Positions 1 to 15,000 of a stretch of DNA of 21,331 bases are shown piece after piece. The position numbers were made by a program. Positions within the stretch are counted from its first letter, which is position 1, and every line of letters starts with the position of its first letter. Origin of the DNA: a virus (taxonomy: Duplodnaviria > Heunggongvirae > Uroviricota > Caudoviricetes); IMG/VR virus record IMGVR_UViG_2698536549_000028, positions 1-21,331 of that record. The stretch is one strand, 5' to 3'.

Positions 1-3000
1 TTAATTAAACTGCACTTCAGCAAATCCTGAACCTGACGCACAGGTATTTGATTTGATTGTTACCGTCATTCCTGTTAACTGTGCGCTTTGCAGTAGCGGT
101 TGCAGATTCCAGCGGTTAGTCCAGTACTCTTTCCCGGCCACTTTTACTGTGAATGTATCATTCTCATTATACTTAGAGAACTCAATTTTACCTTTTGCAC
201 AATCAGCTGCCATTGCATTAACAGAAACAAAAGCAAATAAAGCCGCTACAAATATCTTCTTCATATTTAACTCCTGTTATTCTCCGGATGTATTTAAAGA
301 GTGGGCCCTGCGATTCAGAAAAGCAGCTGCGGTATTACTTTCCCATAAAGTATTGTTTATCCTTATAACTGGCCTGTCGCCAGTTATCTGACATTCTGGT
401 TGTATCTCTTCATTCACGGCGCGAACGGAACGCGCCCCCTGATGATGGCAATTCAGTATAACCGCCACTGTGCCCAGTATCGCTGATATATTATTAAAGG
501 ATATTCGCCCCACTCTGACACCACCCTCTCCCCGAAACTCCGGAAGCACATTGCTGATTCTCCCCCAGTTCAGTGTGAGGTCCACTTCTTCCGGTGTCAT
601 CGTATAAACAGGAGCAGTTTCAGACAGTGCCAGACGAAATTCTCTCTGTATCTGCCTGAACCGTAAGGCTTCTGCTGTGACAGTGACAAAACGCAGAACT
701 GCTCTGGATGCATCTCTGGTCATGGCATTTCCACTAAACTCCATTAACGCCAGATATGATGAAACCAGTGAGTGACGACTGATTTGCATTCCGGAACGTT
801 CCAGCGCTGCGACACGTTGCAGAGTGGTATAGCTGCTGTCCGTTGTCATGGAAACAGTTGTCACACCGGGCACTGATATATGTGCAAAATCTGAAAATCT
901 GTAGAAAGTATTTGTTGCCGTATTAACGAATCCGGCCACATATAAATTATTTTGCTCAATAATCAGACGAAGATGGTCAAAACGCGCCTGATAGACATCA
1001 AGCCCTCGTATATCCACAGCAAAATAACTGCCCGGTGGGGTGTGGTTAATAACAGATACCGATGTGGTCCCCTGAGATATATGTTCAAGTGGGGTCGATA
1101 TTTCTGTCCGTATACTATTTAACGAAGAGACATAACTTTGTTGAGTCGAAAAGTCTATCGTAAATTCCCGGGAATAGGATACCGAAGAAAAGCCCAGTAA
1201 CAGGCACAGTACCCATTTTAACAATATACACTTCATATACAGGTATTCCTTTTGGCTGAAGTAATCAGCACCAGACCCGGCGCAGATATAAAAAAGGCCC
1301 GCAAAAGCGAGCCAGAAAAAATAAGTATGGCGCGTTGTACTGGATTCGAACCAGTGACCGATTGCTTAGAAGGCAATTGCTCTGTCCGGCTGAGCTAACA
1401 ACGCATGAAGTTTTCTGTAATCATCCTCGTTTGGTAACTGCCACTGGCTGACACTGAACCAGTGCGATGTCATGTTTTTCTTTCCTGTTTTATTAATTTT
1501 TCCCAGCAGAAGACAAGAAAAAAGGTTCCGGTGTTATCGGAACCTTTCAGCAGTAAGCATACAATTATAGACGCTATAACCATAACATATTTTTTTGTGC
1601 GCACACAACCCTTTCAGGTAGTACAACTTCAGGATCCATATCCAACCTTACTCCCTGCAGAGTCAGAGCTCCTTCCAGAAATGCTTCAGACGCCTTCAGG
1701 GATGTCCGTACGCTAAGATGACTACGGTCTATCGCCTCAGCAATTGCACGCGTTGAGAGGCCGCCTATAAAACGTAACCCCAGGATCAGCAAATCATCGT
1801 ACGGGCAAACCATACTCATATGCGCGATGCAGGTATCAATCACCGCTCCGTCCTCGTCAGAGCAACCGGGTTTGCCACTGTCGGTTACGTCCCGGGAAGT
1901 AACCGACATTGAGGGCCAGTCAACCATTGAACAGTATTCCTCGCTCGCCGCCCATCGCCCCCACCGCTCCAGAACAAGTTGCATATCTCTACGCATAACG
2001 CTGGCCTCTACGTTTTGCTACTTACCGTTCATCTTTCATTTTGAGGTTAGAAAGATGTTTAAGCCGCTGGCAATACGCTTTCCAGTAAGCCTCAGAGTGC
2101 ATCGGGTGCTCAATGTCGCTATACAGCCATACACAGTCGTCTCGCTGAGTTACCGGCGGTGGCGCTAACACATCTCGAGTGGCCTGCGTTAGTGCTCTTT
2201 TGAAGAAAAAAGCCTCCCCTAAGGGCTGGTAGTCTCTGTTGAATGCTTCCCAAGCCCCCTCAGCTGTTTTGCGGATACCGTAAGGCATACATTGGCGGAA
2301 TATCTTTGACATCGTCGTATCCTCATTTAGTTATTTGCTAATTTTTTCAAGTTAATTTCCGGGTGACGGCTAGGTGACGCGTAATTACATATCCGTCACC
2401 TGCTGCAAAGCGCGCCATATAAGGCCTGAAGATGTTTTAGGTGACAGGTGACGGTTGATTTTAGTTCTATATATAAGCGATCGTATAATACCTAAAATAC
2501 ACACTCTCGCGTATATAGTTTTAAATTCTGCCGTCACCTGTCACCTTTATCACATTTCCCATTGATTTATATATACTTTTCAAGGTGACGCTTAACCGTT
2601 TTGCCGTCACCTAGCCGTCACCTTTTTACAATCCAGATTGCAAAATTTCGCAAGATTTATATATTTCGCGCAATTCTTCGTTGCTGAAATCGTTATTTTT
2701 TACAAGAATCCAAATCCTATATACAAACCCGTCAATTTTTACGCGCACGGGTTCTCGCTTTGTTCTTTCTTTCAAAACGCGAGTAATATGCTTCTGGTTA
2801 ATTTCTACATCTATTCCTGCTTCTGCCAGTATTGCGTTAACAATTTGTTGATAAGTCATTGCTGGCACAGGAGGATTATCCAGGATTTCAATAAGAGCAG
2901 CCTCCACATCGCTCTTATTGCTTTCAATCATCAGAAGGCGTTCTTTCGTCTCGGGTGCGCGCTGCCAGTTAAAGCGAGACAGGTCAACGCCCATCAGATA

Positions 3001-12000: not shown

Positions 12001-15000
12001 TGCTAAATAACCCCACTGCCAAAACGGCATTTTCAATTCAGAATACGTTCTGACATAAATAACTAACGTTCTTAATTTCTGGCTACTTATACCTAATATA
12101 CTTTTTTTAACTTCTCTTTTGATTTCTGCCTTCATAAACTCTACATCAGAAGGCTCAATATGCTCCGGATAATTCTTCAGAATATGCGAGAATTTTGTTG
12201 TTTTCGGTAAAAACCAACTAGCATCTTTAAATAACTTATAAACACCGACTGGTGCAGTTATGGCTGAAATTATGACTCCAACAAGTGAGATAATATCTTT
12301 CGTATCCATGTAGCTAATTCTTCGGAGTAAATACAATGTCCAATATACTATGGGGCGACCTGGAAACTTTCTGTGAAATACCTATCAATAATGGCACCCA
12401 TGCGTATGCCGAAGGCGTTGAAGTGATGCTTTTCGCATGGGCTATCAACGACGGGCCAGTAAACGTGTGGGATATCACTGCCGGTGGTGGTATTCCACAC
12501 GGCTTATACGAAGCAATCGCAGACCCTGAAACCCTGCTTTATTTCCATAACTCTCACTTCGACCGCACCGTTCTGCGTTATGCAATACCGCGACTGGCAC
12601 CGCCAGTCGAACGTTGGCGCGACACGATGGTGCAGGCGCTGGCGCACGGTCTCCCGGGGTCTCTGGGGGAACTCTGCGAAGTACTAGGCGTCCCGCAAGA
12701 CAAAGCGAAGGACAAAGAAGGTAAGGCGCTGATCCAGCTGTTCTGTAAGCCACGCCCGAAAAACAGCAAACTGCGTCGGGCCACCAGTAAAACCCACCCG
12801 GAAGAATGGCGGCGCTTTGTTGCTTACGCCGGACTGGATATCGAGGCAATGCGCGAAGTCTATAAACGTCTGCCGAAGTGGAATTATCAGGGGACAGAGC
12901 TGGCGCTCTGGCATCGTGATCAGCAGATCAACGACCGGGGCGTCTGCATGGACATGCAACTCGCGCGCGCTGCGATCGAAGCGGTAGACCAGGAACAAAA
13001 GCGCCTGGCAAAGCGTACACAGGAAATGACTGATGGCGAAGTGCAGGCAGCCACACAACGAGACGCGTTGATTAAGCACATTGTTGAATCCTACGGTGTG
13101 GAGCTACCAGACATGCAACGCAGTACTCTGGAACGTCGTATTGCCGACCCCGATTTACCATCTGCCGTAAAAGAACTGCTGGCTATCCGCCTGCAGGCCA
13201 GTACTACCAGCACCAGTAAATACAAGGCACTGATGAAAGGCGTAAGCCACGACGGGCGCTTACGCGGTACGCTACAGTTCTGCGGGGCGTCACGTACCGG
13301 TCGTTGGGCCGGACGGCTATTCCAGCCCCAGAATCTTCCCCGCCCTTCACTAAAACAGGAACAAATAGACGAAGGCATCGAAGCACTGAAAGCCGGATGT
13401 GCAGACCTGCTGTTTGACAATATCATGGAACTAACCAGTTCAGCGTTACGTGGCTGCATTATCGCGCCAACGGGCAAAAAACTGGTGGTAAGTGACTTGT
13501 CGAACATTGAAGGCCGTATGCTGGCATGGCTGGCGGGAGAAGAATGGAAACTGAATGCATTCAGAGAGTACGACGCCGGAACGGGTCCGGACTTATATAA
13601 ACTGGCGTATGCAAAAGCTTTCGATATTGCACCAGATGATGTTGATAAACACATGCGTCAGATCGGTAAAGTCATGGAACTCGGTCTGGGTTATGGTGGT
13701 GGTGTGTCGGCCTTCATCACTTTTGCACTGGTTTACGGTCTCGATCTCGACGAGCTGGCGAACGCCGCACTACCAAACATTCCCCGCGATGTTATCCGCG
13801 AGGCGAAAAGCTGGTACGACGAATCGGTTAAACGCAAGTCAACCTACGGGCTTTCTGAACGGGTATTTATCGCCTGCGACTCACTTAAACGTCTCTGGCG
13901 CCGGGCGCATCCCGCGACCTGTGATTTCTGGTACGAACTAGAGCGCACCGTCCGCACTGCAATCGCCACACCGCAAAAAACATTGTATTGCGGTTATCTT
14001 AAAATCCGCCGCGATGGCGCGTGGCTGCGCATACAGCTACCATCCGGACGCGCTGTATGCTACCCGTCTCCGGTTATCGAAAAAGGGAATATCACCTATA
14101 TGGGTGTTAACTCTTATTCGCGTAAATGGCAACGACTCAAAACCTACGGCGGAAAGCTGGTAGAGAACGTCACCCAGGCGGCCGCCCGCGACATTCTGGC
14201 CGGAAACATGCCGCTTATCGAAGATGCCGGTTACAGCATTGTGCTGACGGTACACGACGAGGTGATCACCGAAGCACCTGACACAGAAGATTTCAACGAT
14301 AAAGCGCTTTCCGCGCTTCTCTCCACTAACCCCGAATGGGCGCCCGATATCCCACTGAACGCTGGCGGTTTTGAGGCGTACCGTTACAGAAAAGATTGAC
14401 TTTTATGCGAGTTTTTACAGATACTGACCGCACTACAACGTCAGCGGTCAACCGCACCCGATAGCTTTGCGGCTTTTTTATGCCTGTTTACAGGTATCGC
14501 CATATCAATGGCGGGTCGAGAGAGCCTAATACAATACCCTTTCGGGAAATACGCTCCGCCGTCTGACGCGGTAGTTGAAGCCCGCCACCCCACTAAGGTG
14601 GCAGTCAATACTAAAACGTCAGGAGTCATAATTATGGCTAATCAACTCATCCCCGTATTCAACGGCACTATCGCCAACGAAACAACTCTTTTCGTTAATG
14701 CCCGTGATTTACACGCATTTTTGGAAGTACGTCGTGACTTCTCTACATGGATTAAAAATCGCATAACAGAATACGGCTTTGCCGTTGATGTCGATTACAT
14801 TTTGGTTCACCAAAACGGGGGGATCAAAGGTCGAGGAGGTGATCGCCGTAGCAAGGACTACCACCTCATCCTCGACACAGCCAAAGAACTGGCGATGGTT
14901 GAGCGTAACGAAAAAGGCCGCCAGATCCGCCGATACTTCATCGAGTGCGAACGCAAACTGCACCAGCAGTCCTCCACAATATTAGCGCCGCACAGAGAGT

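Follow-up and report, generated by a model that had tools for sequence, protein, structure and literature searches.

The stretch of DNA analyzed here, hereafter the window, comprises positions 1 to 21,331 of the IMG/VR virus record IMGVR_UViG_2698536549_000028 (Caudoviricetes) and represents the early and regulatory half of a Shiga toxin (Stx) prophage adjoining the host gene yfhL, in an orientation opposite to that of the lambda map. The minus strand carries stxB, stxA, a tRNA-Arg gene, the antiterminator gene Q, an open reading frame (ORF) of 96 amino acids (aa), a primase-helicase gene, cro, and the integrase gene. The plus strand carries a cI-like repressor gene followed by genes for a 300-aa protein, an HNH/NUMOD4 endonuclease, a DUF2800 nuclease, a DUF2815 protein, a Bro-N protein, a family A DNA polymerase, an AntA protein, a DUF4406 protein, a VRR-NUC nuclease, an SNF2-family ATPase, and an excisionase-like ORF (Table 1). 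Cro and the primase-helicase are read leftward to Q and stx, and cI and the polymerase set rightward to the integrase. A preliminary description, made from the sequence alone, had recognized this early-right and early-left operon layout and had named the primase-helicase, DUF2800, DUF2815, polymerase, DUF4406, VRR-NUC, and SNF2 families; Pfam and PHROG profile searches bear out each of these calls, and the layout is as it was described. The interval given there (2626–14399) includes the polymerase but stops short of the DUF4406, VRR-NUC, and SNF2 genes that it named, which lie at 15667–19265. The same description read the two arms as two distinct replication machineries. Our analysis points instead to a single system: the arms probably constitute one self-contained phage replisome of T7-like functional type, split divergently around cI/cro.

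The only ORFs between cro and Q encode the primase-helicase and the 96-aa protein, and for the latter neither Pfam nor PHROG returned a match. The primase-helicase joins an N-terminal archaeo-eukaryotic primase (AEP) Prim-Pol domain (PF09250, E=2.6e-7) to a DUF5906 P-loop domain at the C-terminus (E=1e-13), whose loop is atypical, and it matches the PHROG family 'DNA primase' at 3e-86. The catalytic signature of AEP enzymes, DxD plus a histidine, is present as D100, D102, and H174, conserved in 100% of 61 cluster representatives. The DUF5906 domain aligns to the PDB entries 6k9c and 6k9e ('Primase', E=5.6e-8), a protein that we take to be that of phage NrS-1. Its P-loop reads HGTGRGW (codons 489–495; window 3403–3423, minus strand), compared with GTGKG in the aligned 6k9c/6k9e chain; the domain lacks the canonical Walker A pattern GxxxxGK[ST] and contains hhhh[DE]E, an element resembling Walker B. 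Arginine in place of the Walker A lysine had made us suspect a dead or degenerate helicase ATPase, an idea that was dropped when 95 of 97 cluster representatives (clustering at 50% identity) proved to have the arginine as well; it is therefore a family trait rather than a sign of decay. The protein is also modular, since for many database representatives the similarity is limited to residues 1 to ~328 or to residues ~335–745, and in JNEC-KY176 and 89-3156 an N-terminal part of the window type is joined to a C-terminal part of the VapE type.

Directly past the stop codon of the primase-helicase gene lies a candidate replication origin. The octamer GGTGACRG has eight copies in the 21 kb window, all of them inside this element, where chance would give 0.89; none of 100 shuffled sequences reached eight. 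Together with two GGTGACGC variants, the eight copies make inverted pairs that flank an AT-rich core (~2455–2530). The earlier statement that the primase-helicase is origin-linked is upheld by this arrangement. With the same primase-helicase allele as the window, phage vB_EcoM-611R5 carries the identical eight sites, and four relatives with other alleles have different repeats at the same position in the same symmetric layout: TGGAACCACC in O103:H2 12009, AGGTTGAGTA in JNEC-KY176, AGGTTGTTACG in APSE-1, and TTTGCCTCG in BPP-1. Every allele that we checked is paired with an iteron sequence of its own. Because the JNEC-KY176 protein has its N-terminal 328 residues in common with the window protein and differs in both the C-terminal half and the iterons, these comparisons suggest that the C-terminal part of the primase-helicase carries the origin specificity.

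The family A polymerase of the opposite arm was compared with five distant relatives, drawn from phages of Bordetella, Xylella, Staphylococcus, and Salmonella. Exo I (D8, E10) and Exo III (Y164, D168) of the exonuclease domain are invariant in all of them, as are polymerase motifs A (D387, E392, R394), B (R441, K445, Y453), and C (H640, D641, E642), and the latter three align to Taq, so the catalytic motifs are intact, as had been claimed. Searched against PDB, the protein matches only Taq-like Pol I (E ~1e-5 to 1e-6), a match that places motifs A–C and allows no inference of processivity factors. Amino acid identity is 73.5% to the polymerase of Yersinia phage YeP4, 67.5% to Bbp42 of BPP-1, and 65% to P45 of APSE-1 (the last two over the full length), and it falls to 34.5% for gene L of Bacillus phage SPO2, 32.5% for SH-St 15644, and ~32% for Enc34. 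In SPO2, the gene L polymerase is required for phage DNA synthesis. The E. coli genomes that carry the polymerase gene number 159, and in 157 of these its DNA is 95–99% identical. A direct repeat of 300 nucleotides (nt) with 92% identity between its copies (11157–11456 and 14966–15265) brackets the gene; it encodes the C-terminal domain that the Bro-N and AntA proteins of the window have in common, and the polymerase would be lost if the two copies recombined. The APSE-1 polymerase gene is interrupted by a different HNH insert.

Farther upstream on the same strand, the DUF2800 gene, which encodes a PD-(D/E)XK nuclease, immediately precedes the DUF2815 gene, which encodes an SSB (single-stranded DNA-binding protein) resembling T7 gp2.5. 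The nuclease shows the RecB/Cas4 signature (D133, D146, K148, Q162, Y166) and a cluster of four cysteines (C19, C246, C249, C255), all invariant in six relatives. The DUF2815 homologue of Enc34 is a gp2.5-like SSB by both structure and assay (PMC5686142). Among the 20 window ORFs scanned against Pfam, a set that did not take in every small ORF, none matched a classical SSB family. For the published duf2800-gp2.5-polA module, the lack of a separate classical ssb gene nearby has been noted (PMC8093625).

Both proteins end in acidic C-terminal tails, comprising 16 residues in the nuclease (window 9834–9881) and DDFDDISEGADAEALI in the DUF2815 protein (10398–10445). The two tails are near-identical and have the motif DDFDD[VIL] in common. 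An acidic-Phe motif is found in 36 of the nuclease tails and 43 of the SSB tails from 48 non-redundant loci. The last four tail residues of nuclease and SSB from the same genome show 1.13 identities, compared with 0.53 in shuffled pairings, and 0 of 10,000 shuffles reached 1.13, a count that overstates the significance of the match because the loci are phylogenetically related. The pairing recurs across lineages with different endings (LI, LV, FI/FV, MI, FM, and LA/FA). Acidic tails are also borne by gp2.5 and gp4 of T7. On this comparison, the simplest reading would be that nuclease and SSB dock on a common partner.

The remaining genes of the left arm include a second nuclease and a translocase. 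The VRR-NUC protein scores 20.1 bits in Pfam, below the cut-off of 23.8, and matches the PHROG endonuclease family at 4e-32; five relatives all retain its nuclease residues D46, E60, and K62. Holliday junctions are a substrate of phage VRR-NUC proteins. The SNF2 domain has partial matches to the defense-system helicases DpdE, ZorD, and DrmD in PADLOC. We dropped a defense-system reading of this set, as the PADLOC scan of eight ORFs returned only partial matches to the generic SNF2 core, with nothing for the DUF4406 protein, the 300-aa protein, or two ORFs of 174 and 208 aa described below.

The families of the two arms are inherited together. We examined the 80 best IMG/VR loci with a relative of the polymerase (42–99% identity). 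DUF2800 and DUF2815 are each present in 58 of the 59 loci with at least 4 kb of upstream sequence, and VRR-NUC and SNF2 in 52 and 53, respectively, of the 53 loci whose downstream flank is 5 kb or more. DUF4406, by comparison, occurs in only 5 of the 80, all with enterobacterial-type genes. A relative of the primase-helicase lies within 10 kb of the polymerase in 44 of the 48 loci with at least 9 kb of upstream flank; in 35 of these it is upstream and divergent, and in the other nine it shares the strand of the polymerase, upstream in 7 and downstream in 2. Of 5,426 complete E. coli genomes, 159 have the polymerase, 48 the DUF5906-type allele of the primase-helicase, and 107 the VapE-type allele. 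The two alleles co-occur in at least two genomes and therefore at most ~153 distinct genomes carry one, so that the pairing of polymerase and primase-helicase in E. coli, compared here as totals rather than in a genome-by-genome table, is close to, and not exactly, one to one.

Few of these prophages carry the toxin. The preliminary description had allowed that the module might prove ubiquitous and already characterized in Stx phages; stx is joined to this Q in only 9 of the 5,426 genomes (five with the DUF5906 allele, four with the VapE allele), and it is outside Stx phages that the module is widespread and described. The backbone occurs without stx in ~150 E. coli genomes, such as SI-NP020, which matches the window from 1291 onward and lacks the toxin genes, and is the same prophage without stx. 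The toxin itself is Stx2b, a subtype linked to milder disease: window 1–2625 is 100% identical to a genome with RefSeq stxA2b/stxB2b annotation. Other Stx2b prophages have a different backbone, because only their toxin genes match the window. The toxin cassette sits directly downstream of Q, a position shared with the toxin cassette of APSE-1. In the phage collection, only three records contain the polymerase at >80% identity, none of them Stx-named, and near-identical modules are present in vB_EcoM-606R2, 611R5, and 689R2, phage records deposited as complete genomes. Polymerase homologues with 88–92% identity are frequent in Salmonella, Klebsiella, Enterobacter, and Citrobacter. Strain STEC1590 (from PMC12029490) matches 70% of the window at 98.3% identity.

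Table 1. Features of the window, their positions and strand, and the basis of each assignment.
Feature	Position	Strand	Evidence and remarks
stx2b operon	1..1236	-	stxB 1-264, stxA 277-1236; late-gene cargo lying downstream of Q
tRNA-Arg (TCT)	1328..1404	-	ARAGORN; between Q and stx
Antiterminator Q	1574..1996	-	Pfam Phage_antitermQ E=6.6e-31
Candidate replication origin	2362..2622	.	GGTGACRG iterons
Primase-helicase, 753 aa	2626..4887	-	Pfam, PHROG; probable origin-specific initiator
Cro-like helix-turn-helix (HTH) regulator	4891..5178	-	Pfam HTH_3 E=2.6e-13; true start probably internal, because relatives annotate ~66 aa
cI-like repressor, HTH and S24 self-cleaving peptidase	5172..5852	+	Pfam Peptidase_S24 E=5.7e-18, HTH_3 E=1e-14; start probably the ATG at 5223
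174-aa ORF	6272-6796	-	
Conserved 300-aa protein	7167..8069	+	PHROG 6784 (unknown function) E=1e-178; opens the left-arm set
Free-standing HNH/NUMOD4 homing endonuclease	8072..8590	+	Pfam NUMOD4 E=5e-15, HNH_3 E=4e-9; before DUF2800
DUF2800 nuclease, RecB/Cas4 type	8583..9884	+	Pfam E=1.4e-109
DUF2815 (current name Enc34_ssDNA-bd), T7 gp2.5-like single-stranded DNA-binding/annealing protein	9900..10448	+	Pfam E=3.9e-44; PHROG 'Gp2.5-like' 1.3e-55
Bro-N protein	10795-11595	+	ORF between DUF2815 and polymerase
Predicted membrane protein, 208 aa	11710-12336	-	Between SSB and polymerase
Family A DNA polymerase with 3'-5' exonuclease domain, 687 aa	12336..14399	+	PF00476 E=2.5e-14; PHROG 2.9e-126
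AntA protein	14508-15404	+	ORF after polymerase
DUF4406, nucleoside 2-deoxyribosyltransferase-like	15667..15966	+	Pfam E=6e-34; PHROG 3.8e-44; accessory
VRR-NUC nuclease	15929..16225	+	Pfam 20.1 bits; PHROG endonuclease 4e-32; start probably the ATG at 15956
Minimal SNF2-family ATPase/translocase, 464 aa	17871..19265	+	Pfam SNF2-rel_dom E=3.5e-12; PHROG DNA helicase 1.6e-157
Tyrosine integrase	19459..20862	-	RefSeq annotation of near-identical prophages; prophage end, beside host yfhL (21071 onward)

Several other ORFs lie among the replication genes. The 300-aa protein, which found no match in Pfam, precedes DUF2800 in enterobacterial and APSE-like loci, where its relative is P53 of APSE-1, and was not detected in more distant loci that bear the polymerase. 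The HNH/NUMOD4 endonuclease is an insert outside the core set: its gene runs 8 nt into the DUF2800 start, is present in JNEC-KY176, and is absent from 611R5 and O103:H2 12009, in which the 300-aa ORF almost abuts DUF2800. The 174-aa ORF between cI and the left-arm genes has a coiled-coil N-terminus and a C-terminal CxxC...CxxC pair, and gave no significant family match in Pfam or PADLOC scans. The 208-aa membrane ORF, which Pfam, PHROG, and PADLOC all left without a match, falls in the stretch of lowest GC content in the window (0.39) and is possibly a gene expressed in the lysogen; relatives have another opposite-strand ORF in the same slot (P47 in APSE-1, a 630-nt ORF in E. coli). A scan of positions 4800–7300 for promoters and terminators yielded no more sites than shuffled sequence, and a terminator-like hairpin follows cI at 5873–5894.

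The gene sets of the two arms complete each other: no primase and no other candidate for a replicative-type helicase occurs outside the right arm, and the processive polymerase and the SSB are confined to the left. A reading of the locus as two machineries is unsupported because neither arm is complete and both are inherited together; moreover, versions on one strand exist, and the divergent split is conserved in BPP-1, APSE-1, and Xfas53. From the observed gene content, catalytic residues, iteron element, co-inheritance, and conserved synteny, we infer a division of labor between the arms, which promoters drive which arm, the phage polymerase rather than host Pol III as the replicative enzyme, and the roles of the three processing enzymes. 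In such a replisome, self-cleavage of the cI repressor would release the cro-side transcript, from which the primase-helicase would be made. This protein would recognize the GGTGACRG iterons past its own gene, open the AT-rich core, and load as a ring helicase, with its Prim-Pol domain laying down primers. The cI-side transcript would provide the family A polymerase, which would extend these primers, and the gp2.5-like SSB, which would coat the displaced strands. The DUF2800 nuclease with the SSB (through strand annealing), VRR-NUC, and SNF2 may then serve in recombination-dependent restart, in the processing of primers and ends, and in the debranching of concatemers before packaging. To the question raised earlier, whether the left arm does replication, recombination or repair, or host-takeover work, the answer is likely to be replication and recombination; we found no evidence for host takeover.

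Several points count against a single replisome as we propose it. The helicase ATPase activity is not assured, because arginine replaces the Walker A lysine. In 4 of the 48 loci with sufficient flank, no relative of the primase-helicase lies within 10 kb of the polymerase, and the 80 loci, being best polymerase matches, are non-independent samples. Attempts to induce related Stx2b prophages at yfhL failed in two strains, and the authors considered these prophages possibly defective (PMC12029490). Finally, the phage polymerase need not be the replicative enzyme, because Prim-Pol/SF3-type (superfamily 3) initiators elsewhere use host Pol III. Phage P4 alpha is an initiator that works in this way.

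One alternative is that the primase-helicase and host Pol III replicate from the origin and that the left arm is a separate recombination and repair module at the lambda Red position. In its favor, initiators of this kind can use host polymerases, the left arm occupies the position of lambda exo/bet, DUF2800 together with the annealing gp2.5-like SSB resembles an exonuclease-annealase pair, and the C-terminal half of the primase-helicase has been swapped independently, with DUF5906 and VapE alleles beside the same polymerase. Two independent systems nevertheless seem unlikely to us. Repair alone hardly accounts for a 687-aa proofreading polymerase that every relative has kept; the six genes are nearly always inherited together, and some phages have them all on one strand; the E. 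coli totals for polymerase and primase-helicase are roughly equal; and a related polymerase gene next to a divergent helicase gene is also known from virulent phages, TS6 among them.

The failed induction of the yfhL prophages would also fit a cryptic prophage in which the module is a decaying remnant without current function, and the 92% direct repeat that flanks the polymerase could delete it. Such decay is very improbable for ORFs that are all full length, with their catalytic residues intact, a polymerase held at 95–99% DNA identity across nearly all of its E. coli carriers, and near-identical modules in the complete genome records of vB_EcoM-606R2, 611R5, and 689R2. That the polymerase set acts in host takeover, DNA modification, or counter-defense rather than in replication is scarcely credible: DUF4406 resembles nucleoside deoxyribosyltransferases and the SNF2 domain partially matches DpdE, ZorD, and DrmD, but the matches in the defense library span only the generic SNF2 core and include none of the partner proteins, DUF4406 is confined to the few loci noted above, and the Pfam and PHROG scans of the ORFs revealed no base-modification enzyme.

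If one replisome is indeed encoded, replication of this prophage would be independent of host DnaB, DnaG, and Pol III, unlike that of lambda-like Stx phages. Stx output depends on amplification of the prophage genome after induction, and the Stx field sorts phages by replication region (Eru types) because this region is thought to affect virulence. In the Eru10 type, a Prim-Pol PF09250 protein and Q are the sole genes between cI and stx, and the distance from cI to stx is the shortest (PMC8951638). The right arm of the window fits this type by its published description only, not by the sequence of the reference contig, LOGT01000177.1. That account of Eru10 describes the cI-to-stx side only and mentions no polymerase gene (PMC8951638), so that it covers only half of the replication genes; in the Eru papers, a polymerase gene, DUF2800, SNF2, VapE, DUF5906, Stx2b, and yfhL go unmentioned. 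The present analysis places an Eru10-type Stx2b prophage in a known family of phages equipped with a primase-helicase, polymerase, and SSB of their own, with a practical weight limited by the rarity of stx on this backbone (9 of 5,426 complete E. coli genomes). More tentatively, and with some doubt, we suggest that the nuclease and SSB tails might compete for one docking site on the polymerase or primase-helicase and so switch between origin-driven and recombination-dependent synthesis, with an SF3-like motor bearing an arginine P-loop as initiator, and with amplification and toxin gene dosage independent of host DnaB, DnaG, and Pol III. The iteron origin after the primase-helicase gene, the Walker A arginine, and the common DDFDD tail are not mentioned in the literature cited here.

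Among known systems, lambda has its initiator transcribed from the cro side with iterons in or beside the initiator gene, as in the window. The window differs in encoding a primase, helicase, polymerase, and SSB of its own where lambda recruits host DnaB and Pol III, and no homologue of lambdoid O or P lies between cro and Q. Initiators that combine a Prim-Pol domain with an SF3-like motor include ORF904 of pRN1 and P4 alpha. T7 divides the work in the way proposed here: gp4 is its primase-helicase, gp5 its family A polymerase, gp2.5 its SSB with an acidic, aromatic tail, gp6 its exonuclease, and gp3 its junction nuclease. This likeness is one of function, not of family, because the primase of the window is an AEP Prim-Pol and its motor SF3-like; the Toprim primase fused to a DnaB-like superfamily 4 helicase that characterizes the T7 type is not found in the window protein, and the nuclease families differ as well. 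Unlike T7, the window belongs to a temperate phage with cI/cro control and an iteron origin.

Relatives are found among phages with the 'duf2800-gp2.5-polA module', which was named in a publication that places it in most Gram-negative phages with gp2.5 (PMC8093625). Staphylococcus phage SH-St 15644, of the Firmicutes type of this module, has the same six protein families as the window, but there a single strand encodes all six, and the primase-helicase lies between polymerase and VRR-NUC rather than beyond the immunity switch. Enterobacter/Hafnia phage Enc34 and the Chi-like phages are distant relatives, in which a DUF2815 SSB accompanies a family A polymerase, a primase, a VRR-NUC protein, and a helicase (PMC5686142). 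In the virulent Salmonella phage TS6 the genes diverge in a similar manner, although the annotation of those on either side says no more than hypothetical.

A close match is to Bordetella phage BPP-1, Burkholderia phage BcepC6B, Xylella phage Xfas53, Yersinia phage YeP4, and the Hamiltonella APSE phages, whose polymerases are 57–74% identical to that of the window and whose gene order is the same, from the primase-helicase by cro through cI, nuclease, gp2.5-like SSB, polymerase, VRR-NUC, and SNF2 to the excisionase and integrase. The synteny of the APSE early module with BPP-1, BcepC6B, Xfas53, and YeP4 has been published, with P3 labeled merely 'ATPase' and p2–p5 assigned to packaging (PMC8579659). 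The position of the primase-helicase by cro is shared with bbp29 of BPP-1, P3 of APSE-1, and gp23 of Xfas53, phages that have the same divergent split around cI/cro; P3 has 752 aa, compared with 753 here, and both genes are followed by Q and a toxin cassette. The window departs from this group in its E. coli host, stx2b cargo, reversed integrase, and different iteron, and in its inserts, namely the HNH endonuclease, the Bro-N and AntA paralogues, the membrane ORF, DUF4406, Arc, and Rha. With its DUF2800-DUF2815 pair, polymerase, VRR-NUC and SNF2 genes, and divergent primase-helicase, it fits the BPP-1/APSE/Xfas53 type in these features. The window is a toxin-carrying example of a known and widespread phage replication module, and the finding is real and largely ordinary.

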